A DNA stretch of 64,000 nucleotides from an uncultured Chloroflexia bacterium (GCA_963700285.1 CAVOXA010000010.1:1568001-1632000), one strand, 5' to 3'. Counted from the first letter of the stretch, positions 40,768 to 53,379 are shown. Numbers and translations: made by a program. The notes: generated from the sequence alone by a model not told the origin.

Positions 40768-41898
40768 TCACACCGTGGGTACATCGTAGCCCTGGAGCTT
40801 GAGATACGCCTCCACACCGTCGAGAAAGAGTTCGCGGTACTCGGCGGAAGTGGCTTTGCCAATGTGGCCCACCCGGAAAATCTCGCCCTTTAGGCCCTGC
40901 AATCCGCCACCTATCATGATCTGCCACTCCTCGAGAAGGTAGCTTCGAAGGTCTTCGACGTCCATCCCGGGCAGACGGCGCACTGTGGTGATCAACGGTG
41001 AGGCATTGGCCTCAGGCATGAGCATCTCGAAACCCATCCTTTTCAACCCGCCACGGACGAATTGGGCCGCTTCGACGTGCCGGGCATAGTGGGCATCGAG
41101 GCCATGTTCTTCAATCAGCCGTAGGCTGGCCAGTAGGCCCAGAATGTTGTGCGTCGGCAGTGTGGTAGGATAGGGATGCCAGGGACCCCACTGGGTCTTG
41201 TAGTCCTTCCAGGTACGCAGGTTCAGGTACCAGCCGTGGGCCCCCTCGCGCTTGCGCTCCATCTGGTCCCAGGCGCGCTGGCTGACGGACACGGGTACCA
41301 GGCCGATGGGGCCCGCCAGGCACTTGTTGCCAACGGTGACACACACGTCGATGCCCCACTCATCCACCGGCAGCGGCATGCCGCCCAGGGTCGAGACCGC
41401 ATCCAGGATGAGGGGCACCCCAAACTCTCCAGCAACGGACACGATCTCCTCCAGGGGATTCAATACGCCGGTAGAGGTCTCCAGGTGAACGACGGCCACG
41501 GCCTGGATATCGGGTTCGGCAGCCAGTTCCTGCCGTATCGCCTCCGGATCCACCGGTTGCCCCAGCGGCGCCTCAACGGTCCGCACCTCCAGGCCGTGGC
41601 TCCGCCCGATGGTGGCCATCCTCTCGCCAAAAAAGCCGTTGTGGGCGACCAATACCTTGTCGCCCCGCCCGGCCAAGCTGCCGATGGCCGCCTCCAAACC
41701 CACCGTCCCGGGTCCGATGAGCAGGAGCATCTCGTTCTGGGTGCCAAAGACCCGCTGGAGTCGCTCCAGGGTCTCATCATAGATCTCCATCCAGGCCGGG
41801 CCATAGTGGGCGCGCACCGGCTCGGCCATGGCCGCCAGGACCTCATCCTCCACGCCTACTGGCCCGGGGATCATCAGTTTGATGTGCTGTGCTGTCAA
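40768..41898 (-). CDS. Class V PLP aminotransferase (serine-pyruvate / alanine-glyoxylate type)
   Basis: AGGAGG RBS then TTG, LMIPGPV, NGFFGERM, VHLETSTGVLNPL, DAVSTLGG, GNKCLAGP.GL, FRVGHIG. Confidence 0.9.
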   Translation of the reverse strand: MTAQHIKLMIPGPVGVEDEVLAAMAEPVRAHYGPAWMEIYDETLERLQRVFGTQNEMLLLIGPGTVGLEAAIGSLAGRGDKVLVAHNGFFGERMATIGRSHGLEVRTVEAPLGQPVDPEAIRQELAAEPDIQAVAVVHLETSTGVLNPLEEIVSVAGEFGVPLILDAVSTLGGMPLPVDEWGIDVCVTVGNKCLAGPIGLVPVSVSQRAWDQMERKREGAHGWYLNLRTWKDYKTQWGPWHPYPTTLPTHNILGLLASLRLIEEHGLDAHYARHVEAAQFVRGGLKRMGFEMLMPEANASPLITTVRRLPGMDVEDLRSYLLEEWQIMIGGGLQGLKGEIFRVGHIGKATSAEYRELFLDGVEAYLKLQGYDVPTV

Positions 41899-42119
41899 GA
41901 TCAGCCTCCTCGCTACATGCTGCATTCGTAATGGTAAAGGGATCACCCCACAGAGCAAACCCACCGCACAGATTATACCACCCTCCCGCGCCAGAAGCAA
42001 CCCCTCCACGTTGGGGGCATTCGAAGCAGAACAGTGCGGGTCACGAGGCCTGGATATAGTAGTTCCATGCAAGCCATTCACTACATGTAGTAGAGGTTGC
42101 CTTGGGGTTGATACAGACG

Positions 42120-42270
42120 TTCGGATCATCGTGGAGCAGGTCGGGGTCATCGCATGAGAGAAAGCTGTTGTCCAGAGGTCCGAAGGCGATGCCACGCTGC
42201 TGCAACTGCCGCTTGGCATATTCATTACCGTTCAGGCACATCTTGACGCCGTAGGGAGCCATAGGTACAC
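42120..42270 (-). mobile_element. Short remnant of a putative transposase
   Basis: PYGVKMCLNGNEYAKRQLQQRGIAFGPLDNSFLSCDDP resembles a motif I recall from IS-associated proteins (C[LI]NGHE..KRQ...GI.F..LDN.F..C.DP). Isolated fragment, family not certain. Confidence 0.45.
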
Positions 42271-42403
42271 ACTTCAGTGAAAGTGACCAACCCGTGGCCC
42301 TACCGCTCCCGCCACATATTGTCACAGACTTTGGGATTTTCTTGAGCGAAGGCTTCAGCCAATAACTCCCCCGACCAGCGTGCGTAGGCAATGCCCTCTC
42401 CGG

Positions 42404-42695
42404 TTAGCTGGAGTGATCTGCTCTCTCAACCCTATGCGGCCTCGGCGCAGCGCGGGCGATGAGTTTTTCGATCTCCAGCGGTTCGGCTTTGGCCGGATCG
42501 CGCAACAGAGAGATGGCTTCCTGCGAACACTGGGAGACGCATACCCCACAGCCGGCGCACAGGTCCTCATCCACCTGGGCGACATGGCCCGAGGAGGCCA
42601 GCATGGGCGTGCCGTGCTGGTGGGCCTGCATCGCCCCATAGCAACAGGAGCAACAGTTGCAGATGGCATAAAACCGGCCCAGCATGGCATCCTTG
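42404..42695 (-). pseudogene. Displaced 3' fragment 1 of the 4Fe-4S protein gene
   Basis: KDAMLGRFYAICNCCSCCYGAMQAH.HGTPMLASSG.VAQVDEDLCAGCG[deletion]VCVSQCSQEAISLLRDPAKAEPLEIEKL matches the C-terminus of 50801..51743. Confidence 0.9.
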
Positions 42696-42783
42696 TAGTA
42701 GTGGACACAACCGACAAGCGTCGTTTGCTTTGACGACACGGTTGGTGGTACCGCCGCCTACACGGAGACGAGAAAGGTCATAG
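42696..42783. repeat. Conserved att-like arm, copy 1
   Basis: TAGTAGTGGACACAA..TTTGACGACACGGTTGGTG..ACGGAGACGAGAAA, repeated at 44577 and 45697. Confidence 0.85.
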
Positions 42784-42856
42784 CTAACCAGAACTCTGGT
42801 ACTCTTGGTACCACGGTATTCATAGGTCAAGGCAGGGGGGCTAGCCGCGCACGCCC

Positions 42857-43258
42857 CTAACGGGACTTGTACTCCCAGTAGGAGCTGTAGAATTCGTCGT
42901 GAAGCATGGTCTCCTCATCATCGGCCGCCGACGGCTTGTCCGCAAAGCCAACACCTGACCAGAATTCCAAGTCGCCTAGCTCAGGATCGGAAACACCATC
43001 CATCAACGAAAAAAGCCGAAAGAGCGGGGCACTGGCGGTATCTGCGACAACCTTTCTCAAAGCAGAGCGAGCCGCAGGTGACAGTTCCAGGTTCTTGAGA
43101 GCGACTCTCTCTTCTGTAGTGAGAGTTTCGCCTGGAGGATACGTCACGTCAGTGCCGTGTTGCGAAACGCCAAACCAGTTCAATGCTACCGTGGTTGCCT
43201 CAGCGATTTCCTTGTGCATCTCAAAGAACAGCGCTTGTTGTATTTCCTCTCTCGTCAT
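42857..43258 (-). CDS. Hypothetical acidic protein (cargo)
   Basis: 133-aa ORF with plausible composition, lower GC than the core genes, no family recognised. Confidence 0.7.
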   Translation of the reverse strand: MTREEIQQALFFEMHKEIAEATTVALNWFGVSQHGTDVTYPPGETLTTEERVALKNLELSPAARSALRKVVADTASAPLFRLFSLMDGVSDPELGDLEFWSGVGFADKPSAADDEETMLHDEFYSSYWEYKSR

Positions 43259-43492
43259 CTCGCCTGCCTTTCAGGCATCGATTTTCTCACATCGCGGGCT
43301 AGCGGTTGACGCATCAGCCGCCGCTGGGTGACACCACACACCCAACTTGACCCAATGTACTTCCAAAATTCGAACTGGCAGCAACAAGGCTTTCGATCAG
43401 GCGGAAGGAACTTGGCATCACGCCAAGGAAAAGAGCGTCCTGAACGCTACGCACTTTCGCTATTTGTCAAGGCGTGCCCACGTTGACCGTGA

Positions 43493-43879
43493 CTACCACA
43501 TCACCGTAACTGGATACTGCTCGAATAACGGATCGTTGCTGAGCAGGATTGCGTTCTCGGCATTCGCCTGGGCAATCAATAAGCGGTCAAACGGGTCTTT
43601 GTGGGGCGTAGGAAGGGCCTCCAGCGCCAAGACATGCTCCAGGTCAACCGGCAGGACCTCAAGGTCGTTCGTCTTACATTGACTTTCAAACACTTCTCGC
43701 AAAGGCGACTTGAGTTTCAGCTTGCCCAATTGGGATTTGATCTGCATCTCCCAAACGCTCGCCACGCTGAGCAAAAGCGTATTCGACCGATCCTGGCACA
43801 GCGCAAGTGCGTTCGACGACAACTTGCCCGGCTCGCTGTCCCACCAGATGAAGGTGTGCGTATCAAGACGCAGTCTCAT
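43493..43879 (-). CDS. vapC: PIN-domain toxin (VapC family)
   Basis: LDTHTFIWW, LSVASVWEMQIK..LGKL, HKDPFDRLLIAQA..E..ILLSND. Confidence 0.92.
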   Translation of the reverse strand: MRLRLDTHTFIWWDSEPGKLSSNALALCQDRSNTLLLSVASVWEMQIKSQLGKLKLKSPLREVFESQCKTNDLEVLPVDLEHVLALEALPTPHKDPFDRLLIAQANAENAILLSNDPLFEQYPVTVMW

Positions 43880-44111
43880 CCGTCCCCGTCCAGAATTCAT
43901 CCGGCAGCGGCTCGTCGAAATCCTCGCTCGTCCAAATTGCCCCGCTGTGAAGTCCCGCGATGCGTGGCGTCATCGGCGAAGCAATGGGTACCAGGCGCGC
44001 GAGGGGGACATTGTCTTGGGTCAGGATGATCTCTGCCCCCTCGAATGTCTTGGACAACAACTCTTCCAGATTTATCTTTGCCTCTTGCACATCAATTGTC
44101 TTTGCACCCAT
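43863..44111 (-). CDS. Antitoxin (Phd/YefM-type N-terminus, DUF2281-like C-terminus)
   Basis: TIDVQEAKINLEELL..GAEIILT..PLARLVP..RIAGL..SEDFDEPLP. Directly upstream of and overlapping the PIN toxin. Confidence 0.88.
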   Translation of the reverse strand: MGAKTIDVQEAKINLEELLSKTFEGAEIILTQDNVPLARLVPIASPMTPRIAGLHSGAIWTSEDFDEPLPDEFWTGTDETAS

Positions 44112-44387
44112 CTGCGCCTCTCATAATTCGTACCTTCTCCCCAGCTGCTGACAATGGCGATGGTGACATTATGCACCTGAAATCCTTTCCTGTCAAGCGA
44201 TGGCAGTAGCCTCTGGTAGATTGAGTTGATCCCGGGCAAGTCCGGCACACTGTCGATCAAGCAACGTCGAACAATAAGCCACATGACGGTTAGCATAACC
44301 GGCATATATGGTCCTATCTGCGATAAACGACGCCGACTGCGAATGTTCCATGGCGGTGCTTCTTGCGAACGCCATTGGCTCTCAGTT

Positions 44388-44576
44388 CTATCCAGTTACC
44401 GCTGCCTCTGCGATGAGCTTCTGAATCTCCAGCGGCTCGCCCTTGGCCGGATCTCGTAGCAGTGAGATGGCTTCTTGCGGACAGTGCGCAACGCACACCC
44501 CGCAGCCCATGCAGGCAACCGCATCGATGCGGGCGAATCCGTCGTCTACCGAAATCGCCGCAAACTGGCAAATTTG
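44388..44576 (-). pseudogene. Displaced 3' fragment 2 of the 4Fe-4S protein gene (shortened)
   Basis: CQFAAISVDDGFARIDAVACMGCGVCVAHCPQEAISLLRDPAKGEPLEIQKLIAEAA. Confidence 0.9.
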
Positions 44577-44660
44577 TAGTAGGGGGCACAATCAACAAGC
44601 GTCGTTCGTTTTGACGGCACGGTTGGTGGTGCCTGCCGACGGCTGCCAGGAGGCAAGAAA
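44577..44660. repeat. Conserved att-like arm, copy 2
   Basis: TAGTAGGGGGCACAA..ACAAGCGTCGTTCGTTTTGACGGCACGGTTGGTGGT..GGAGGCAAGAAA. Confidence 0.82.
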
Positions 44661-44732
44661 CGCCACCGCTAAATGATTTCCACAACCTGACGGCAGCGGG
44701 CGACCGAGAGATGCTTCATCACCTCGCGCATT

Positions 44733-44763
44733 TTGACAGAACGTGTATATTGTTGTAATATAC
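44733..44763 (+). promoter_or_regulatory. Promoter of the brnT-brnA operon with overlapping palindromic operator
   Basis: TTGACA-17bp-TAATAT. Inverted repeat GTATATT-5bp-AATATAC overlaps the -10 box. ATG follows 9 nt after the -10 box, so the transcript is probably near-leaderless. Confidence 0.7.
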
Positions 44764-44770
44764 GAGTACC

Positions 44771-45094
44771 ATGAAAAGAGCCATCGCCGACTGCAAAGGC
44801 TTCCAATGGGATGAAGGAAACGAGGACAAGAACTGGTACCTTCATCAAGTCACCGATGGTGGATGTGAACAGGTCTTTTTCAATCTGCCCCTCATCGTTG
44901 CTCCAGATACAAGACATTCACAAACAGAACAACGGTACTACGCGCTGGGGCGCACGGATGCAGATCGCTGGCTATTCGTCGCGTTTGTGGTCAGGAATGA
45001 TTTGATACGGGTGATCTCTGCCCGTGATATGAATCAGAGGGAAATGAGAAGATATGCCGACAGAATTCAAAGAGATCCCAGATTTCAAAGATGA
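44771..45094 (+). CDS. brnT: BrnT-family ribonuclease toxin
   Basis: GFQWDEGNEDKNW..HQV..CEQVFFN..HSQTEQRYYALGRT..R.LFVAF..R..LIRVISARDM. Confidence 0.88.
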   Translation: MKRAIADCKGFQWDEGNEDKNWYLHQVTDGGCEQVFFNLPLIVAPDTRHSQTEQRYYALGRTDADRWLFVAFVVRNDLIRVISARDMNQREMRRYADRIQRDPRFQR

Positions 45095-45350
45095 AGAGGA
45101 AGAGCGTGCGTTTTGGGCGACGCACGACTCGTCAGAGTATATTGATTGGGATAGCGCCGAGTCCGCGATCCTGCCACAGTTGAAACCATCAACCAAGACT
45201 ATCTCCCTACGGCTACCCGAGGCAATGCTGGACGAGCTGCGAGTCATCGCCAACAAACGCGATGTGCCATATCAGTCCCTGATCAAGGTCTTTCTAAAGG
45301 AGCGCATTGATCAGGAACTGGAGCAACACGCCGGGGTCAAAGTCAGGTAA
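45054..45350 (+). CDS. BrnA-type (CopG/RHH) antitoxin
   Basis: IPDFKDEEEERAFWATHDSSEYIDW..LKPSTKTISLRLP..IANKRDVPYQSLIKVFL.ERI. Confidence 0.88.
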   Translation: MPTEFKEIPDFKDEEEERAFWATHDSSEYIDWDSAESAILPQLKPSTKTISLRLPEAMLDELRVIANKRDVPYQSLIKVFLKERIDQELEQHAGVKVR

Positions 45351-45696
45351 GCCCCGTCGCCGCTGCCTCGGCGATGAGCTTCTGAATCTCTAGCGGCTCC
45401 CCCTTGGCCGGGTCGCGTAGCAGGGAGATGGCTTCCTGCGGACAGTGGGCGACGCACACGCCACAGCCCATGCAGGCGGTGGCATCAATGTGGGCGAATC
45501 CGTCGTCTACCGAAATCGCCGCAAACTGGCACGAGTCGGCGCAGGTGCCGCAGCGGCGCACAGCTCCTCATCCACCACCGCCACGTACCCCGACGACGCC
45601 AGCATGGGGGTGCCGTTGTTCCAGGCGTTCATCGCTCCGCAGCAGCACGAACAGCAGTTGCAGATGGCATAGAACCGATTGAGCATCGCATCTTTG
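45343..45696 (-). pseudogene. Displaced 3' fragment 3 of the 4Fe-4S protein gene
   Basis: KDAMLNRFYAICNCCSCCCGAMNAWNNGTPMLASSGYVAVVDEELC..CGTCADSCQFAAISVDDG..CMGCGVCVAHCPQEAISLLRDPAKGEPLEIQKL, with one frameshift. Confidence 0.92.
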
Positions 45697-45784
45697 TAGT
45701 AGTGGACACAATGGAACATGTCCGTTCGTTTTGACGGCACGGTTGGTGCTCCCTCCACCTGTACGGAGACGAGAAACATCATAG
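45697..45784. repeat. Conserved att-like arm, copy 3
   Basis: TAGTAGTGGACACAA..GTTCGTTTTGACGGCACGGTTGGTG..ACGGAGACGAGAAA. Confidence 0.85.
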
Positions 45785-46048
45785 TTGGGAGCCCCATCCA
45801 GGATAGACCACACAACGCGTACAGAACCAGTGGTCTGGACGCTTCTGTTTGCTCAGAATTGTCTTGGGTCGATAGGTCACGAACTCGGTATGCCTCGTCA
45901 TGGGCACATGCTACCGGGAGGTAGGAAAACGGTCAAGTATAGTGACGAGTCCCAGCGCGGTGAGCTGTCCCCCAAAGTCCCCACGAATCCCGGCAAATAT
46001 GGCACAGTATACGGGCACAATCGTCAGGGATAGAGGAGGAGAACAAAT

Positions 46049-46252
46049 ATGTACAGAACGGAACTACCTGGCTTGGTGCTCACGCCGGCCTATAGTCCAG
46101 AAGACTCGAGCTTGTCCGCATGGCTAACCGAAGTGCTCCTGGCCTTCCGGGGAGACCTGGCGACGGTGGAACTCTGTCAGACCGAGAAAAGGATCGTGCA
46201 ACACCTGCCCAAGAACCCGCCGCGGTATCTGGAAGCCGTGACAAGGGCTTGA
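46049..46252 (+). CDS. Small hypothetical protein
   Basis: Strong RBS GAGGAGGAG before ATG, 67 aa, no family recognised. Confidence 0.5.
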   Translation: MYRTELPGLVLTPAYSPEDSSLSAWLTEVLLAFRGDLATVELCQTEKRIVQHLPKNPPRYLEAVTRA

Positions 46253-46492
46253 TTTCCGGGCTGCTTGCGGGTATGGTGGTGATATGGACAACGCCCTGTG
46301 ATGATGTGCGCACCATCCAGGGCAACGACCAGACCCACACGGACGGTCCGCTACGTAGTGGGGATTCCAAGTCCATATACTACCAGCAATAATTCCAGGG
46401 CAACTTTGCCGTCCGGGATGGGATGAGACCGGAGATTCAGGCTGCCGTGGGGGTTGAGACCTCACAAGCCAACACCAAGGAGGAATTCAGCC

Positions 46493-47001
46493 GTGAGCAA
46501 AGTCAAAGAGATCTTGCGAACTTAAGGGCCTGAGGTCTGGTCGATGGCACCGGATGCTACGGGGTACGATGCGCTTAAACTGATGGCCGATTGGAATGTA
46601 GGTGCCGTGCTCGTGATGGACGCCAACCACCTGGTGGGCATCCTATCAGAGAGGGACTATGCCAGGAAGGTCATCCTCCACGGCAAGTCGTCCAAGGACA
46701 CATCGGTCTGGGAGATCATGACCCAAAGGGTGGTCTATGTGCGCCCCGAACAGACCGCCGAAGAGTGTATGGCACTGATAACCGACAAGCGGGTTCGGCA
46801 TCTGCCCGTCCTGGAAGACGACCAGGTGATCGGCGTCATTTCGATCGGGGATGTGGCAAGAGCATCATTTCTGAACAGGGGTTCATCATCGAGCAGCTCG
46901 AACGCTATGTCTCGGGGACCGTATATCGGAGACGGCAATCTGGCAGATCAGATGGGAGGCTAGAAGAAGACGCCCTGCGATCTAGCACCATCCACGGGTA
47001 G
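46493..47001 (+). pseudogene. CBS-pair protein, disrupted (TAA at 46523, frameshift near 46858)
   Basis: AAGGAGG RBS then GTG, ALKLMADWNVGAVLV..LVGILSERDYARKV..EIMT..ECMAL.TDKRVRHLPV..GVISIGDV. Confidence 0.8.
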
Positions 47002-47043
47002 ACGGGCGACCAAACCGCTGCGAAGGGGAGAGGAGCCGCCGCA

Positions 47044-47358
47044 ATGACCGAAACCCCCAATGACGACAAGTCTGGCTTCGCAACCGAGAAGCCAGAACAC
47101 TGTCATGCCTGCTCCCAGCTTATTCGTCCTGGCCAGATATACTTTCTGACAATTGGAAACGCCGTGCTCTGCGGGGACTGCATTAAGGCTACTGACGCAA
47201 TCCGCGTGGTCGATGAACTGGTAGTGGTGATTGAGGGTGGCAAGCTGTTGGTTCAGCGCGGGAGCGCTGCGGGCGAGGTTTCGCCAGGTGAGGTGCGGCA
47301 CCTGGTTGATGCACTGGTAGAGGGGACGGAGAAGCTGGTGGGTCGGCAGACACATTAG
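47044..47358 (+). CDS. Hypothetical protein with two CxxC motifs
   Basis: GAGGAG RBS, CHAC and CGDC motifs, 104 aa. Confidence 0.6.
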   Translation: MTETPNDDKSGFATEKPEHCHACSQLIRPGQIYFLTIGNAVLCGDCIKATDAIRVVDELVVVIEGGKLLVQRGSAAGEVSPGEVRHLVDALVEGTEKLVGRQTH

Positions 47359-48088
47359 CCCAAGGAGTGAGTGGGTATGCTCGCCCAAAATGCGCATCCG
47401 TTCGAAAACCCATCGCTCAGGGATGGTAACCTTTTTGGATTGCTCGGGCTGAGCGGCTGTTCCCTCAGCGGATGGCATTTTTCGGCCAGGACACGGCGAG
47501 GCTCCAGGCCACTCGTGGACCGGACGCTGCCGTCTGGACTTTCTAGCCGATCTATAGCTATGGAATCGATGCCTTGTGGAGCGCAACCAGCCCGGCTTCT
47601 CGCTCGCTGAAAAGCATCTTGAGAGTGCCGTACAGTACGTCCGATGGGGGCGCGCCCTGGGGGAAGCGGTTGAGCCTCGTGATCGGCTCTTGATAGCCCG
47701 ATCTGCTTGTGCGGTGTGCCATTTCTGCAATCCCTGGTAGGCGCCCGCCTCGGCGACGACGCTTTATCCGACGCTTTGGCTTCGAGCGCCTGGCGCCGTG
47801 ACGTTTCGAGTGGTGTCTGCCAGCCGGGTGGGCTCCTATCTAGCGGATTTTTTCATCACCTTTGCTGGTAGCCAGAAGTATGGTTCCAACGATTGGGGTC
47901 TCAACCTCCTCGCTTCGGAGTTGGCTCAATAGCGATTGTGGTGTACAATCAGCCTGCACCTGCGGCAAGAAGTTGCAGCGGTCCCCAATTGCCGGTCCAC
48001 GGCCCGGACAGCATCAAGACGGTTTTCCAGGCCGGCGCTTCGTTCCGTTTTGTGTTGGCGACAGGGTTGTCCAAGAAAAGGTGGCGCA

Positions 48089-50518
48089 ATGTCCAAGAGA
48101 GTCGTTTCCCTCGTAACCATCTGGCTGTTGCTGTCGACGCTGGTCCAGGCGACGGGTCGCCCCGCCCTCGAGAGACGGCCCATCCAAGATGCTCCAGCCG
48201 CCGGCAAGCTGAATGTTGAACTGTTGGGCCATTGGTCGGACCACAATGTCCTCGATCTGGAGGTGCGTGGCGATCTAGCCTTTATGTCCTACTATGATGG
48301 CAGTTCGGACGCGTTCGGTCACGTCTGGCTGGTGGACGTCTCCGATCCCACTGATCCGCACCGGCGCGCCGGTCCGGACCTGATCACGGCCGGCTTGTAC
48401 GCGGTATTCAAGGCGGTCAGTGCCGACGACCAGTTTGTCTATGTGGCCGAAGAATCGCTGCAAGGGAGCGGGTCGTCGGTGGAGGCGTATACCGAAAGCA
48501 ACCTGGAGGAGTTCTGCAGCTATTACACGGATTCCTCGATGGTTGAGATGTGGACCGGCGCAACGCCCAGCGGGGAGTATTTGTTTGTGGCCCAACGCAA
48601 TGGCCTCTTGGTTGACGGGTCCGAACAAGGGGAAGGGCTTAACTGCGGCGCGTTGGGCACCTACGAGGCGCCCAGCGAGTTGACCGCCGCCGCCCACACG
48701 GCGGACTTTGCCTACCTGGGCACATCGGACGGCCGCCTACTGGTGGTGGACGTTGCTTTTGCCACCAAGCCCTCAGACCCAAAGGAAAAGAGCCGCAGCG
48801 TGCTGCTGCCCGGCGGCATCGATGCCATGGCCGCCGCACCCGGCGTCGTTTACCTGGCCCAGGGGACGACGATCAAGATTGTGGACGTGTCCAATCCCGC
48901 TTCTCCGGTGGTAGCCAAGACGTTTACCAGTCCTGTGGCAGTGGCCCAACTGGGGGTAGCCAGCGGTTACCTGTACGCCGCCTCGGCGGGAGGGCTCTAT
49001 GTCTTTGACGTGGGGGACAACAACGCGCCCAACCTGGCCGGCTACTACCTCGACCAAACCGACGGCGGCTTTGGCGGGGCGCTCTATTTGGCCAATGGCC
49101 TGGTCTACACGGGCGGTCCGGGAGGGCTGAACATCCTGCGGTTTGCGCCCGGCGACCAGCCAAAGGGAGCCCTTCTGATACAGCCTGGGGAACCAGGCAG
49201 TGTCTCGCTGAATGGAGTGGAACTGTCTTATCCCTGCGAACTCCAGATGCCAGCCCTGGGCGCCAAGGGGCCGGTGGTTGATGCAGCTTGCGCAGAGGGT
49301 AAGCAAGGAGACAAAGTCGAGATATTGAAAAAGAGAACCATGATCTACATGTATGTCGGGTGCATCGTTACGATGTTTGAGCAGTTCAGGAGGGCGCTTG
49401 GGGTCCGCCGTCTGGAGGATGGTGACCGGTGGCTCGTCAGCGTCGCGTTCTTGGGGGCTCATGTGGTATGTTCGGAAAAACTTCCGTCAAGAGCGCAAGA
49501 CACAGCCTCGCCCTACTTGGTGCTCGATCACGAGTCCGGGGCTCTGCAGTACAGCTTTCTGCTGGAGGAACAATCCGTAGAGGTCAGAACCCAGGCTGTC
49601 GCGATACGCTCCGACGGCGCCAACACGGTGAGCGTCGACCACGACCCGCAGGCCAACCGGACGACGGTGAGTTGCTACAGCGGCTCTCTGACTCTCACCC
49701 CTAAGAACAGCTCCCTGCCCCCCTTCACCCTGGGGGCCAGCCAGGAGGTGGAGGTCACGGCGGAAAGCGTCAGCCCCATCGAGCCCATCGACTACCCCTA
49801 CTCCAGCTTCCTGCCGCTGACCGCGAGAGCGTACGCTAGTGCGCCGCCCAGCGGCTGGCGCACCCTGCTGCGGGAGGATTTTGAGGGCGTATTCCCCGGC
49901 GCCTGGTCGGTGGCCGATGGCTCGGCCGGCTCCGGCGAGCATCATTGGGCCAGCCGCACCTGCCGGCCCCAGGCTGGGGGGCGCAGCGGATGGGCGGTGG
50001 GCGGCGGCTTTGGCGGCGCGGCCCTGCCCTGCGGCAGCGACTACCCGCCCGAGGTCGAAGGTTGGATGATGGCCGGCCCCTTTGATCTGTCGGACGCCAC
50101 CGCAGCCGAGGTGACCTTCCAGCGCTGGCTCAATTCCGAATCGGAGGACCGCCTGCTCTGGCTAGCCTCCGCCGACGGCGTGAATTTCCAGGGGTGGCAG
50201 GATTCAGGGGCCGTGGGCGATTGGCAGGAGACGGTGTTTGACCTGACGAATGTGCCAGGCCTGGGCGATCTGACGGGGGATCCGGACGTTTGGATCGCCT
50301 TTGTGTATTCCAGCGATGCAGCAGGCAGCAAGCCCGAGGGCGCCTATGTGGACGATATCCTCATGCGAAAATACCTCCCGGCGACGGGTGGGGCTCAGAG
50401 CGCCCCGCAGCCGGGCGCTCGACAGGCGGCGCCTCAGGAGACGGAAGAGCTGGCGCCAGCATCATGGGTGCTGCCCGCTGCAGGAGTTGAGCGACGAGGC
50501 TCGGCGAGCCCCTACTGA
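48089..50518 (+). CDS. Secreted protein: LVIVD-repeat propeller, FecR-like region, internal FLP motif, C-terminal beta-sandwich (MAM/choice-of-anchor J-like)
   Basis: Signal peptide, LVDVSDPTDP and IVDVSNPASP repeats, YSSFLPLTAR, then EDFEG.FP..W..GPFDLSDAT..WLNSE..SSD..EGAYVDDI. Confidence 0.78.
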   Translation: MSKRVVSLVTIWLLLSTLVQATGRPALERRPIQDAPAAGKLNVELLGHWSDHNVLDLEVRGDLAFMSYYDGSSDAFGHVWLVDVSDPTDPHRRAGPDLITAGLYAVFKAVSADDQFVYVAEESLQGSGSSVEAYTESNLEEFCSYYTDSSMVEMWTGATPSGEYLFVAQRNGLLVDGSEQGEGLNCGALGTYEAPSELTAAAHTADFAYLGTSDGRLLVVDVAFATKPSDPKEKSRSVLLPGGIDAMAAAPGVVYLAQGTTIKIVDVSNPASPVVAKTFTSPVAVAQLGVASGYLYAASAGGLYVFDVGDNNAPNLAGYYLDQTDGGFGGALYLANGLVYTGGPGGLNILRFAPGDQPKGALLIQPGEPGSVSLNGVELSYPCELQMPALGAKGPVVDAACAEGKQGDKVEILKKRTMIYMYVGCIVTMFEQFRRALGVRRLEDGDRWLVSVAFLGAHVVCSEKLPSRAQDTASPYLVLDHESGALQYSFLLEEQSVEVRTQAVAIRSDGANTVSVDHDPQANRTTVSCYSGSLTLTPKNSSLPPFTLGASQEVEVTAESVSPIEPIDYPYSSFLPLTARAYASAPPSGWRTLLREDFEGVFPGAWSVADGSAGSGEHHWASRTCRPQAGGRSGWAVGGGFGGAALPCGSDYPPEVEGWMMAGPFDLSDATAAEVTFQRWLNSESEDRLLWLASADGVNFQGWQDSGAVGDWQETVFDLTNVPGLGDLTGDPDVWIAFVYSSDAAGSKPEGAYVDDILMRKYLPATGGAQSAPQPGARQAAPQETEELAPASWVLPAAGVERRGSASPY

Positions 50519-50800
50519 ACCGTATGGGGTCAGAAAGGGATACCTGGCCCACTGTCGGCAACCAAGCTCTACACCCCACATCAGCCTGGGACTGGTGCCG
50601 ATCTGGTCGCTGCTGCTTTTACCTGTCCTGGCCGAATATTCTCATCCGGCCAGGACAGCCAATGGTCGCGAGGCTTGACTCTTCCGGCTACCAGGCGATT
50701 GATCTGCCGCGCAAACTCGCGCTAGCAGGTGGACTTGGGATCCCGGGTCTTGTAGGCATCGCTGGGCAAAAGAACCGGGCTCACACTGGCCAACTATCTA

Positions 50801-51743
50801 CTATCTTTCTGTGACTTGAGCGGCCTGGGCCATGAGTTTTTGGATCTCCAGCGGTTCGCCCCGAGATGGGTCGCGCACCAAGGTGATACCTTCCTGAGCA
50901 CACTTGGAGACGCACACGCCACAGCCCATACAGGCAGCAGGACTCGATCACTGCAGTTCCATTGTCCACGCTAATCGCTTTGAATTGGCAATAGTCGGCG
51001 CAGATACCGCAGCCTGCGCACAGATCCTCATCCACCTGGGCGACATAGCCCGAGGAGGCCAGCATCGGCGTGCCGTTCCGGTGGGCGTTCATCGCCCCGC
51101 AGCAGCACGAGCAGCAGTTGCAGATGGCGTAGAATCTGCCCAGCATAGCATCTTTGAAAAAGGCGTGGTGCACGTGCCCCCGCTCGTGTTCGGCGCGCAG
51201 GATCTCCACGGCCTCGTCTGGACTGATCCAGCGCGAGCGCTGGGGGTGGTGTTCGCCGACAAAGCTGGCAAAAGGCTCGCCAATGACCATGCACACGTCC
51301 AGCGGCTCGCAATGGTTGGGTCGTACGCTGCGGCAGGGACAGTCCAGGACCACGATGTGGTCCGGATCCTGCAGCACAATGTCGCGGGCCAGGGCGTAGG
51401 GAATGGCCTGCTCCAGGTCGGTCAGGACGACCTCCTCCTCGACCGTAACCAGTTGGGTCGCCGCCTCCAGGGACACCACCTTGCCGTGATAGGTATCGGC
51501 AAAGGTGATGCGATCCGGGTCGTCCTCCGCAGGCGGCGGCAGCAAGCGGCTCACCAGGCGAACCGGCGGCCCAAAGATGCGGGCCAGCGGATGGGTGCCG
51601 GCCCCAATGCCAATATAGAGATAGGTCCAGCGGCCATACACGTAGGCGTGCAGAAAGTTCAGGAGGGAGTAGCCGGGCGTATTGCGGGCTTCTTTGGCAA
51701 AGGCGCGCGTGGCCGGCCGGCCTGATAGGAATTTGGGCTTCAT
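50801..51743 (-). CDS. 4Fe-4S dicluster-domain protein (intact target gene); apparent frameshift near 50945
   Basis: YHGKVV, CPCR..C..C, ICNCCSCCCG, CAGCGICADYC, and after frame correction CMGCGVCVSKCAQEGITLVRDPSRGEPLEIQKL. Confidence 0.88.
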
Positions 51744-51963
51744 TGAATCGTCCTCGCTTTCGTCCATTCCACGCAATTGTAGCACAAAGCCCGGCGCTTG
51801 GCAATGAGGGTTCGCCTTCAACCAACAATGAGCCACCAATAGCTACCGGTCACCGGCCGGCTGACGAGCAGGCAACATTTCGGGTGCCTTCGCCTCGGCC
51901 TGGCAGTTCACAGGCACCCCCTTAAGGTGGCCGAAAAAGTGTCCAAACAAAGGGGTGCACTTC

Positions 51964-52179
51964 TTATTTTTCTCGCAGTTGCTCCAGCACGCTATCAAAC
52001 AGCCGTGCTTCAGCACCATGTTCAATCAACCGGTCAGGGAACTCGCTCAACACACTAAAGTTGAAGCCTTTGTAATTCAACGGCAGATGCAGAGGGTATT
52101 TCCAATCCAGGCGGACACGGGCAGCGTTCGCCGCCGCTCTATCCGACAGTTTCTCGAGGAACTGGAATATCGTCGGAGG
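51964..52179 (-). mobile_element. IS1182-family transposase fragment (DUF772 region)
   Basis: Minus-strand translation FQFLEKLSDRAAANAARVRLDWKYPLHLPLNYKGFNFSVLSEF.DRL..LFDSVL. Confidence 0.75.
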
Positions 52180-52236
52180 GGTATAGTGAATTCGCGGGTT
52201 GGGATTTTTGTCTATGCAGTCCCACGCTCCACTAGG

Positions 52237-53379
52237 TCATGAATAGCGCTGGCCGACAATGCGCAGGGACACTACCCCCATCACAATGCTCAGGGCTACC
52301 AGAGCTGTCACTTGGGGCCACAGCTCCCGCAACCCTGCCCCTTTGAGCATGATGCTGCGGATGATAATCAGGTAGTGTTGGAGAGGCGCGAAGCGAGAGA
52401 TAAACTGTAGAAAGGACGGCATGTTTTTGACCGGTACCATAAAACCGGAGAAAGCAATCTCTATCATGGCCAGAATAAAGACAAAGAGGATCGCCTGTTG
52501 CTGGGTACGGGAGATGGCCGAGATGACCATGCCCCAGCTCACTACTGTCGCGACAAAGAGTAGGGTCAAGGCTGCTAGCAAAAACACGGAACCATTCATC
52601 GGTACTTGAAATACGAGCAAACTGATGGCCCACATGATGGCAAAATTCAGGCTACCAATGGCAAGGGCCGGGATGCCCTTGCCCAAAGCCAGTTCAAGGC
52701 GACGCAATGGTGTCACCATCAACTGCTCCAGTGTGCCGAGTTCACGTTCGCGTGCCAGGCCAAGGGATGCGATTGCCAAGGTGACTTGGTAGGTGATAAA
52801 GCCCAGTTGAGCAGGAATGGAGAAATCACGAAAGTCCATCGAGGGGTTGAAGCGTATGTCGGTTCGGAAATCGATAAACTCGGTGGAAACCAGGCCATAA
52901 TTGGCGGCAAGATCCGCCGTCAGGCGGCCTACCGCGCCTGTAGCAGCGCCGAGGGTTGTAGAGGCGGCTAGCGTATTGGTTGCATCGGCGATGATACCGA
53001 CTTGTATCGGAGCAACGGCTCCCGTCTTCTGTTGTGGTGAACGGGCGTTGGTTAGCTCCTGCGAAAAGCCTGCAGGAATGACTACTGCCAGGTGGATGTC
53101 TCCCCGATCCATCAAGTTGCGTACTTGGTCCATGCTCTGAACATGGTAGACGATGTGTAACTCTTCGGTGTTATCCAGGTTGACCACGAGTTGGCGGCTG
53201 AGGCGGCCGTGATCCTGATCCAGAATTGCCACGGGCTGTTCGGTGATCCCGCGTTCGACATTCTGGGCCATGAGGATCAACTGCAGGGCAGGTGCCAAAA
53301 GGATAAAAACAGACAGCATTTTGTCACGCCTGAACTGGATCAGTTCTTTGATAATCAAGTTGCCTGTACGGATGATCAT
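52237..53379 (-). CDS. ABC-2 type transporter permease (YbhR-like)
   Basis: LIIKELIQFRRD, ARERELGTLEQLMVTPL..ELALGK, FSGFMVPVKNMP, PLQHYL.IIR.IMLKG. Confidence 0.9.
   Translation of the reverse strand: MIIRTGNLIIKELIQFRRDKMLSVFILLAPALQLILMAQNVERGITEQPVAILDQDHGRLSRQLVVNLDNTEELHIVYHVQSMDQVRNLMDRGDIHLAVVIPAGFSQELTNARSPQQKTGAVAPIQVGIIADATNTLAASTTLGAATGAVGRLTADLAANYGLVSTEFIDFRTDIRFNPSMDFRDFSIPAQLGFITYQVTLAIASLGLARERELGTLEQLMVTPLRRLELALGKGIPALAIGSLNFAIMWAISLLVFQVPMNGSVFLLAALTLLFVATVVSWGMVISAISRTQQQAILFVFILAMIEIAFSGFMVPVKNMPSFLQFISRFAPLQHYLIIIRSIMLKGAGLRELWPQVTALVALSIVMGVVSLRIVGQRYS

Follow-up and report, generated by a model that had tools for sequence, protein, structure and literature searches.

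We analyzed a 64,000-nt stretch of DNA from an uncultured Chloroflexia bacterium (GCA_963700285.1, CAVOXA010000010.1:1568001-1632000; we refer to the whole stretch as the window). In the window, a gene for an uncharacterized cysteine-rich 4Fe-4S protein (the head gene) is accompanied downstream by three headless copies of its own 3' end, and next to each copy is a conserved arm of about 90 bp that is absent from the gene. The original prediction, made from the sequence alone, was that integrative elements had inserted repeatedly at one site in the gene and that the arm was non-coding. The integration hotspot was right and the arm was wrong: as judged by sequence comparison, the arm is coding sequence for the C-terminal 29 residues of a large serine recombinase (LSR). 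We consider it very probable that each junction of an arm with a displaced 3' end is an attR scar, left by an element that has its attP within the gene for its own integrase. The array is likely to be the head gene plus three attR scars of separate invasions. Its parts are as follows.

50801..51743 (-): head gene, full length, with a match to Pfam's Fer4
51154..51155: predicted attB crossover dinucleotide, AA on the gene strand, at the start of the Lys codon in ..FFKDAM..
45695..45784 (+): arm 1, the last 29 codons plus stop of an LSR gene; P half of attR1
45343..45695 (-): displaced 3' end 1, B' half of attR1; -1 frameshift near 45551
44575..44676 (+): arm 2, LSR tail, attR2; a 4-nt insertion shifts the frame after codon 20
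44388..44575 (-): displaced 3' end 2; about 160 nt are missing immediately past the junction
42694..42783 (+): arm 3, LSR tail with 29 codons plus stop; attR3
42404..42694 (-): displaced 3' end 3; in-frame deletion between two ferredoxin motifs

The arm as the end of a serine recombinase gene

On the + strand, the arms read C-S-S/R-G-H-N-x-x-x-P-F-A-L-T-A-R-L-V-I-P, and the stop codon is the far edge of the arm. We gathered 47 distinct arms from 40 sources. Five of these have indels, and 37 are directly followed by the junction codons of the Fe-S gene, for which the two collection scans selected. For tests of coding constraint we used the 32 arms that were full-length and high-scoring (the other 15 had indels, were truncated, scored weakly, or belonged to another target). 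Across codons 7-25, which lie outside of the search pattern, the LSR frame has no stops in these 32 arms, and the ratio of nonsynonymous to synonymous differences per site (pN/pS) is 0.51, or 0.30 over codons 10-21. The other five frames have pN/pS of 0.61-2.06, and the one with the next-lowest value (0.61) has 15 stops. Furthermore, a profile built from 44 arm peptides found 8 proteins among the 7998 that were scored, from a database of 5.8 billion. Two of the eight are full LSRs that end in the 29-residue arm peptide: P0002 (E = 1e-6) and P0003 (E = 3e-6). A profile from the 28 Fe-S-type arms alone gave the tails of these two proteins 27 bits. When compared to 1.84 billion representatives, this 28-row profile had five hits, of which three were arm-junction open reading frames (ORFs) that read through and two were short ORFs; one of the short ORFs resembles a C-terminal fragment of an LSR, and there was no full LSR among the five. 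Overall, the arm has an open and constrained frame that matches the C-termini of LSRs. By sequence, P0002 and P0003 are members of the family, and they are not shown to be the enzymes for the Fe-S gene.

We considered and rejected several other identities for the arm. A structured RNA, an attC site, or the end of a group II intron is not indicated, as the 32 arms have no consensus fold (-1.6 kcal/mol); the only Rfam match within 41500-52500 was below the gathering score and lies inside the gene. A coding region on the gene's strand would have stops in 15 of the 32 copies. An IS91-like or IS200-like end, or a piece of the remnant at 42041-42391, was dropped upon the match to LSRs (the remnant has no second copy in the genome). 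Similarly, a tyrosine integrase acting in trans was rejected: the seven PF00589 matches in the genome are all away from the array.

We interpret the junctions as attR scars because, in related elements, the cut in the LSR gene is at this same codon, and the rest of the LSR gene is joined to a host gene that has been split. Most full-length matches to the LSR stop at residues 490-531 of 552 and then continue into a host gene. These host genes are cysteine desulfurase-like, comM, radC, mvaD-like, GHMP kinase-like, glmS-like, and others (several of these names are from motifs). Relatives of P0003 are present in 57 of 401 genomes from the class, and, with a stricter cut-off, relatives of P0002 are present in 9 of 251 genomes from the phylum. 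(One of the 57, G357, is unpublished; no other result depends on it.) No relative of P0003 was found in the viral contigs; one pattern match there, inside a phage head gene, was taken as chance. Eight PF07508 loci from four array-bearing genomes were also set aside, as they encode distant LSRs with no Fe-S neighbor.

P0002, P0003, and the LSRs of four elements are over the cut-offs for PF00239 and PF07508 and also match PF13408 (below the cut-off for the LSR in G348). By these domain matches, these proteins fit the make-up of Resolvase, Recombinase, and Zn-ribbon; the window itself has the tail only. In the AlphaFold model of P0002 (mean pLDDT of 82), the folded body extends to residue 530, and the cut follows at 536/537. 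The tail has pLDDT under 50, and only 2 of the 33 rows include it. All of the Pfam domains and the confidently modelled body precede the cut, so the model makes it likely that the integrated enzyme keeps all its domains.

In genome G100, a cysteine desulfurase-like gene is split between an attL (contig 6) and an attR (contig 1) that share a 6-nt core. The halves of this element form an inverted repeat around AA, and when read by eye across the core, the LSR frame is open through to the tail's stop. We placed the crossover in the head gene at 51154-51155 because the codon register is the same as in this pair. The exact crossover dinucleotides in the window (51154-51155, 45694-45695, 44574-44575, and 42693-42694) are inferred from sequence. 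In two other genomes, G348 (31 kb, in radC) and G268 (43 kb), both ends of the element are on one contig and genes for Replic_Relax relaxases lie inside; the element in G348 also has a coupling-protein domain, PIN pairs, and McrBC. (The attR junction of G268 was read by eye from the flank.) More broadly, the elements of relatives hold genes for relaxases, coupling, or replication between attL and attR. As their sequences read, the attL of these autonomous relatives fuses the 5' part of the host gene to the LSR and disrupts the target. Because the relatives that are bounded by attL and attR hold Replic_Relax relaxases and split their host genes, we think that the parent elements resembled integrative and conjugative or integrative and mobilizable elements (ICEs or IMEs) and disrupted their targets.

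We also noticed some other features of these genes. In G275:C126 and G391:C129, LSR-family genes are paired in tandem, and the first gene of each pair reaches or overlaps the start of the next one. At seven loci from other families (L119, L123, L138, L141, L152, L156, and L157), the LSR tail has a near-consensus sigma-70 promoter, identified by eye, that faces back over the att site; such a promoter could drive whatever lies past attR. Finally, the tails (P0002, P0003, L138, and L140) often end in basic residues and two small residues, which we presume to be reminiscent of C-terminal degradation tags.

The array and its counterparts in other genomes

We confirmed the head gene and the three headless copies at their predicted positions. 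Arm and gene diverge at 51156/51157. Copies 1 and 3 begin at the identical base, as had been noticed, and so does copy 2, but its next 160 aligned columns are gone. An arm is indeed present beside each copy, and E-values of 1e-10 to 1e-16 from BLAST among the arms within the genome show that their similarity is not due to chance. Also as predicted, the 3' ends differ mostly at synonymous positions, with pN/pS of 0.15-0.25 for the first 48 codons (three pairs) and 0-0.36 for the last 34 codons (six pairs). The copies inside the window are only 72-90% alike.

The condition of these genes was not confirmed as described. The head gene had been described as intact, but in the assembly it has an extra base (+1) at about 50938. 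This base is missing from one relative's contig, and the frameshift may be an assembly error. All three copies are damaged: copy 1 by a -1 frameshift, copy 2 by a large deletion, and copy 3 by the in-frame deletion between the ferredoxin motifs and a Cys-to-Tyr change.

The cargo between units differs, as the Pfam scan confirmed. The remaining features of the locus are as follows.

50692..50775 (-): sbcD remnant (tblastn, 68% over 28 aa, E = 6e-6); sbcD is the gene's neighbor at the empty site of relatives
47936..50518 (+): unit 1 cargo, LVIVD-repeat protein (PF08309)
46544..46963 (+): unit 1 cargo, CBS-domain protein (PF00571)
45785..45901 (-): 5' stub of a radical SAM gene, about 38 codons (BLAST to C1:1126644-1126724, E = 9e-10; translation)
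44771..45350 (+): unit 2 cargo, pair of BrnT toxin and CopG-type antitoxin (PF04365, PF12441)
43493..44111 (-): unit 3 cargo, pair of Phd/YefM-like antitoxin (PF02604, below the curated cut-off) and PIN (VapC-type) toxin (PF01850)
42857..43258 (-): unit 3 cargo, 133-aa ORF with no Pfam or NCBIfam match

The head gene's product has no NCBIfam family over the cut-off. Overall, the att content of the array is one attB and three attR, and attL is absent from the window.

The genome assembly is 89% complete with 6.5% contamination, and the original prediction had raised the concern that the array is a chimera of assembly. The array is real. The public sequencing runs contain at most 0.25 of the sequence words, so none of them is from this strain and gaps in their cover carry no meaning. 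Nevertheless, their contigs cover 42629-42868, 42839-44486, and 44577-45417 at about 93-98% identity. They bridge copy 3 and arm 3, run from copy 2 through unit 3, and run from arm 2 through BrnT into copy 1. The BrnT/CopG cargo of unit 2 and both of its flanks are on one contig of run X1, and the 133-aa ORF of unit 3 is covered by contigs of runs X1, X2, and X3. The 4-nt insertion in arm 2 is absent from the contigs of runs X1 and X4. In all four of four runs, contigs depart from the gene at 51156 into an arm (10, 9, 7, and 15 contigs). In other words, the distal two units are bridged in other runs; among the listed contigs of those runs, none crosses unit 1 or the entire array.

Similar scars are present elsewhere in this genome. 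With the arm profile, nine sites were above the background from reversed peptides (whose top score was 14.4 bits): the three in the window, one at the radical SAM gene (C1), one at metG, two at comM, and two with no assigned target (C5:113499 and C6:16872). A tenth arm, at 13.5 bits, was accepted only because a 3' duplicate of a DinB-like gene follows it. The coordinates of the scars at metG, comM (several), the DinB-like gene, and the radical SAM gene are C10:642181, C10:643012-643131, and C10:650684-651439; C10:1852149-1861152; C10:1702180; C10:1957500-1958259; and C1:1125478. For metG, comM, and the DinB-like gene, there is a full-length copy upstream of the scars. As had been predicted, no intact recombinase is in the array, nor did we find one in the genome: a search for PF07508 genes in this 89%-complete assembly was empty. 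The sole LSR remnant that we found (residues 417-524, at C10:596104-596555) is fused to a 5' piece of the DinB-like gene at C10:596238. It is an attL relic, 1.36 Mb from the attR of the DinB-like gene.

The same junction is also found in relatives and in metagenomes. Among the 22 other genomes of the family, four (G005, G012, G017, and G018) have units of an arm with the gene's 3' end, as do one further GTDB genome and 33 metagenome stretches on 30 loci. The four related Anaerolineae genomes have the same layout with other cargo. As the original prediction expected, cargo varies among relatives (most of it is toxin-antitoxin pairs), and there are relatives with an empty site: G013 has the order Era-FeS-SbcD, and G001, from the same genus, has one copy. 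Most relatives have a single copy of the gene. The named records with the junction are Anaerolineaceae metagenome-assembled genomes and one that is labelled as Thermodesulfobacteriota. More broadly, 34 of 50 chosen genomes have matches to the arm, with up to 16 per genome if weak matches are counted. Other targets are metG, comM, and a cysteine desulfurase-like gene, for which one contig holds four copies of the 3' end.

The displaced ends are decaying. Of 38 that could be scored (another seven were too short), 11 passed a strict test of intactness, four more were open by inspection, and 23 were damaged. On the other side of the units, the flank next to the cargo is common to several assemblies for 17 of 45 arms (six groups), and there are 34 flank groups among the 45 arms. 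Some of the assemblies that share flanks may hold the same strain. The original prediction also proposed an age order, with the oldest unit at 42.4 kb. This order is expected under every model and was not shown here; a tree of 35 3' ends supports just 2 of its 32 inner branches. In five loci (L049, L082, L096, L098, and L106), the displaced 3' ends are broken at the same Cys-rich stretch by a short insert, which is probably a small repeat element.

We made several observations near the array. The radical SAM stub stops just short of that gene's att site, and the radical SAM gene is itself a target of this LSR family, as an arm/radical SAM junction is present in L054. The stub, together with a promoter-like site (45785-45936, -), adjoins the arm in three assemblies (the window, L076, and L097). 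This arrangement suggests that two members of the LSR family inserted in a nested fashion and that a deletion then took place. Beyond the array, a class V aminotransferase (40768-41915 in the window) sits directly upstream of the Fe-S gene in G017 (L052), at 71% DNA identity and with the order reversed. The remnant at 42041-42391 (-), also seen in L070, is part of a protein whose family matches nothing in Pfam or NCBIfam and has a 391-aa relative in G001; it may be transposase-like. Upstream of the head gene, 51955-52239 is a decayed fragment of a mobile element with no family hit, which is presumably IS1182-like; 51969-52174 is matched at about 89% by contigs of 1.8-2.7 kb from three runs. 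Short stretches that look by eye like the ends of attC sites flank the orphan ORF of unit 3 (43290-43335, -) and the arm on C1 (C1:1125290-1125405).

How the arrays may form

Repeated site-specific integration at one site in the head gene, with displaced 3' ends left behind, was a correct part of the original prediction. However, it also supposed that attP carried a replacement 3' end. This does not match how the LSR family integrates at other targets, where the attL of relatives disrupts the gene, although no attL or attP was found for the Fe-S gene itself. Integration by attP x attB explains the junctions between tails and 3' ends, and it would leave an attL and a broken gene.

We propose that the invading element brought with it a full-length spare of the gene that it targets, close to the tail of the integrase. 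If the spare had the same direction as the chromosomal gene, then a crossover between the two 5' parts would delete the integrase and the transfer module. The product of this collapse would be a restored gene, the cargo, and a tail joined to the old 3' end. The restored gene would be a fresh attB, so the cycle could repeat and the array would grow from its head. Toxin-antitoxin cargo would guard a unit against loss by recombination between the repeated 3' ends. For this model as a whole, we estimate a probability of roughly 0.55.

We favor this model because of four observations. In G100, the desulfurase gene that is split is native and in its syntenic place; the element holds another, intact copy, which is about 70 nt away from the arm. 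In the genome under study, a full DinB-like gene and a radical SAM gene end 1 nt and about 40 nt from an arm, respectively. The head gene's identity to G001 drops before the att site: it is 95-96% far upstream, 85-87% from about 200 nt before att, and 84/71/78% after it (20 control pairs gave 88/93/90/88/90/87/85%). And the sbcD remnant lies behind the head gene.

Several results weigh against this model. The gene is cut at the att codon in 0 of the 401 genomes from the class, and no attL for it was found among the loose ends listed for four runs or in the viral contigs. The expected intermediate, with an attL, an LSR, a spare in the same direction, and an attR, was absent from 13 LSR regions and from the further ones that we examined. 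Both of the element-borne copies (in G100, and radC in G348) are inverted and could not collapse in this way, and RadC in G348 could be ordinary cargo. The break in identity upstream of att is from one pair of genomes and could reflect ordinary recombination. Finally, the cargo-side flanks that are shared for 17 of the 45 arms also fit with units that move as ready-made cassettes, and they favor some reuse of units.

If units do move ready-made, they could be true cassettes that use the ordinary reactions, attP x attB and attL x attR. An LSR element would excise at a distal attR, carrying the old 3' end, the cargo, and the tail to a new host; it would then integrate at attB and excise at the proximal attR, so that the unit is left and the gene is restored exactly at att. 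We think this rather unlikely, even though standard LSR reactions suffice for it and even though it resembles the accretion and cis-mobilization that are reviewed in PMC5704250 (as excerpted). It would account for cargo that is mostly small toxin-antitoxin modules, for the flanks that different assemblies have in common, and for the finding that other sediments contain units 2 and 3 (at about 93-98% identity) with no cover of unit 1. But among the LSR regions that we examined, there was no LSR element with more than one attR behind it; the divergence of the head gene from G001 begins about 200 nt upstream of att and not at att (in this one pair); and the origin of the first unit is unexplained. 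Either this route or later shuffling of the repeats would yield the same end product as collapse.

A modification of the original prediction is that circles of a tail, a 3' end, and cargo re-enter, so that the array grows without a new invasion. They would re-enter at the repeated 3' ends through homologous recombination, or else through an atypical reaction of attR with attB. The repeats are 150-350 bp, which is long enough for RecA; flanks are common to different arrays; and no intact LSR was found in this genome. We nevertheless consider such circles improbable: the arms show the coding constraint of an active integrase gene, the 34 flank groups among 45 arms suggest many independent captures, and the copies in the window are just 72-90% alike. 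Also, according to the abstract of PMC3783163, serine integrases are inactive on other combinations of att sites. As for a chance tandem duplication of the gene's end or a chimera of several strains, the assembly does contain indels of the long-read type (such as the frameshift in the head gene) and 6.5% contamination. Given that the identical junction base is found in other genomes and metagenomes, that the distal units are bridged in other runs, that the arm is an LSR tail, and that the same layout occurs behind other genes, this would be very surprising.

A more sweeping interpretation, which we regard as unlikely, is that Anaerolineae have an integron-like way of storing genes that does not involve an integron. 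A clade of self-cutting serine integrases would invade a dozen or more conserved protein-coding genes, including the essential metG. Each visit would restore the gene and leave a small toxin-antitoxin or defense cassette that is bounded by the integrase's C-terminal codons. Visiting elements would remobilize the cassettes, and the swapped 29-residue tail would be a switch between integration and excision.

Collapse of the element around a spare copy would be a route by which serine-integrase elements that disrupt genes become harmless cargo arrays, even behind an essential gene. The signature, an integrase tail back-to-back with a duplicated gene end, exposes hotspots that lack a nearby integrase. 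Genes of this LSR clade that are annotated on chromosomes miss the true C-terminus, which is relevant to mining LSRs as tools for integration; the scars supply both the att site and the target gene for many LSR variants.

Comparison with known systems

For these comparisons we relied on excerpts of the cited papers. The closest known system is the ssrA islands of Dehalococcoides, from the same phylum (McMurdie et al. 2011, PMC3146451). Their serine integrase, DsiB, has about 540 residues, and in every case the 3' end of its gene overlaps attL; the authors suggested that the gene may be complete only on the circle. Islands are stacked in tandem behind one host gene, 15 of them without the integration module, which is kept at attL in 16. 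However, the DsiB islands insert into the tmRNA gene, about 20 bp before its end, and their direct repeat is 20 bp long. In the LSR family studied here, the cut falls 100-270 codons before the end of a protein-coding gene, and the displaced ends in the window are 190-350 bp. Furthermore, the autonomous elements disrupt their targets, and the arrays keep attR scars only, behind a full-length gene. Going by the description of the six-gene DsiB module (dsiA, parB, mom, and others), the annotated LSR elements hold other genes.

The suicidal integrases of archaea (SSV1, pTN3, and pT26-2) also have the att site inside the integrase gene, so that integration splits the gene, and this was described as exclusively archaeal (PMC8371274). 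Those are tyrosine recombinases that are split into large halves, whereas this serine recombinase loses just its last 29 residues. With this family, self-splitting integrases are no longer confined to the tyrosine enzymes of archaea and the single case from Dehalococcoides.

An attP of the replacement type, as at icd and tRNA genes (PMC10111431), similarly gives a working gene followed by a displaced 3' fragment. In those systems, the replacement sequence is part of a tyrosine integrase's attP, whereas in the LSR family, the LSR gene itself makes up the other half of attP. An attP that carries the target's 3' end was not seen in the autonomous relatives at other targets, and no element for the Fe-S gene was found. 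LSRs that target genes, with a hotspot at comM/Mg-chelatase, were described by Durrant et al. (PMC10083194); those elements also disrupt protein-coding genes, and comM is a shared target. In what we have of that paper, an attP inside the LSR gene, arrays of attR only, and an Fe-S target are not described.

The best NCBIfam hit of P0002 is XisF of the fdxN element, at 98 bits, which is below the cut-off of 375. The target of the fdxN element is a ferredoxin gene. A short core of the LSR type is present in G100, and in the window, the arm and the gene agree only from 51156 on. The units are not an integron cassette array, as the arms have no consensus structure or Rfam family and there is no PF00589 match in or near the array.

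In our literature search, we found no paper that describes this gene as a target, or arrays behind protein-coding genes that consist of attR only, although an earlier description is possible (for example in Mageeney et al. 2020, on TIGER and regulated gene integrity). A search for Anaerolineae with serine recombinase had no match, and the available parts of PMC12884075 and PMC13626063 have nothing that is specific to this system.

The array also resembles cis-mobilizable elements (CIMEs) and the tandem accretion of ICEs and IMEs (PMC5704250), in that decayed units without integrases, which have lost their genes for integration and transfer, are stacked at one site. In that review, serine-integrase IMEs are said to disrupt dispensable genes, and CIMEs keep both attL and attR. 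Each unit here has attR at one boundary and either attB or attR at the other, and such units also lie behind metG. Flanking by attL and attR was seen for relatives at other targets and not in the window. Because the window has an attB and three attR, and an attL for this gene was found in 0 of the 401 genomes, we view the units as remnants rather than as elements. Overall, the system works like the accretion of ssrA islands or CIMEs but departs from both in the features that define them, which are the target and the att content.

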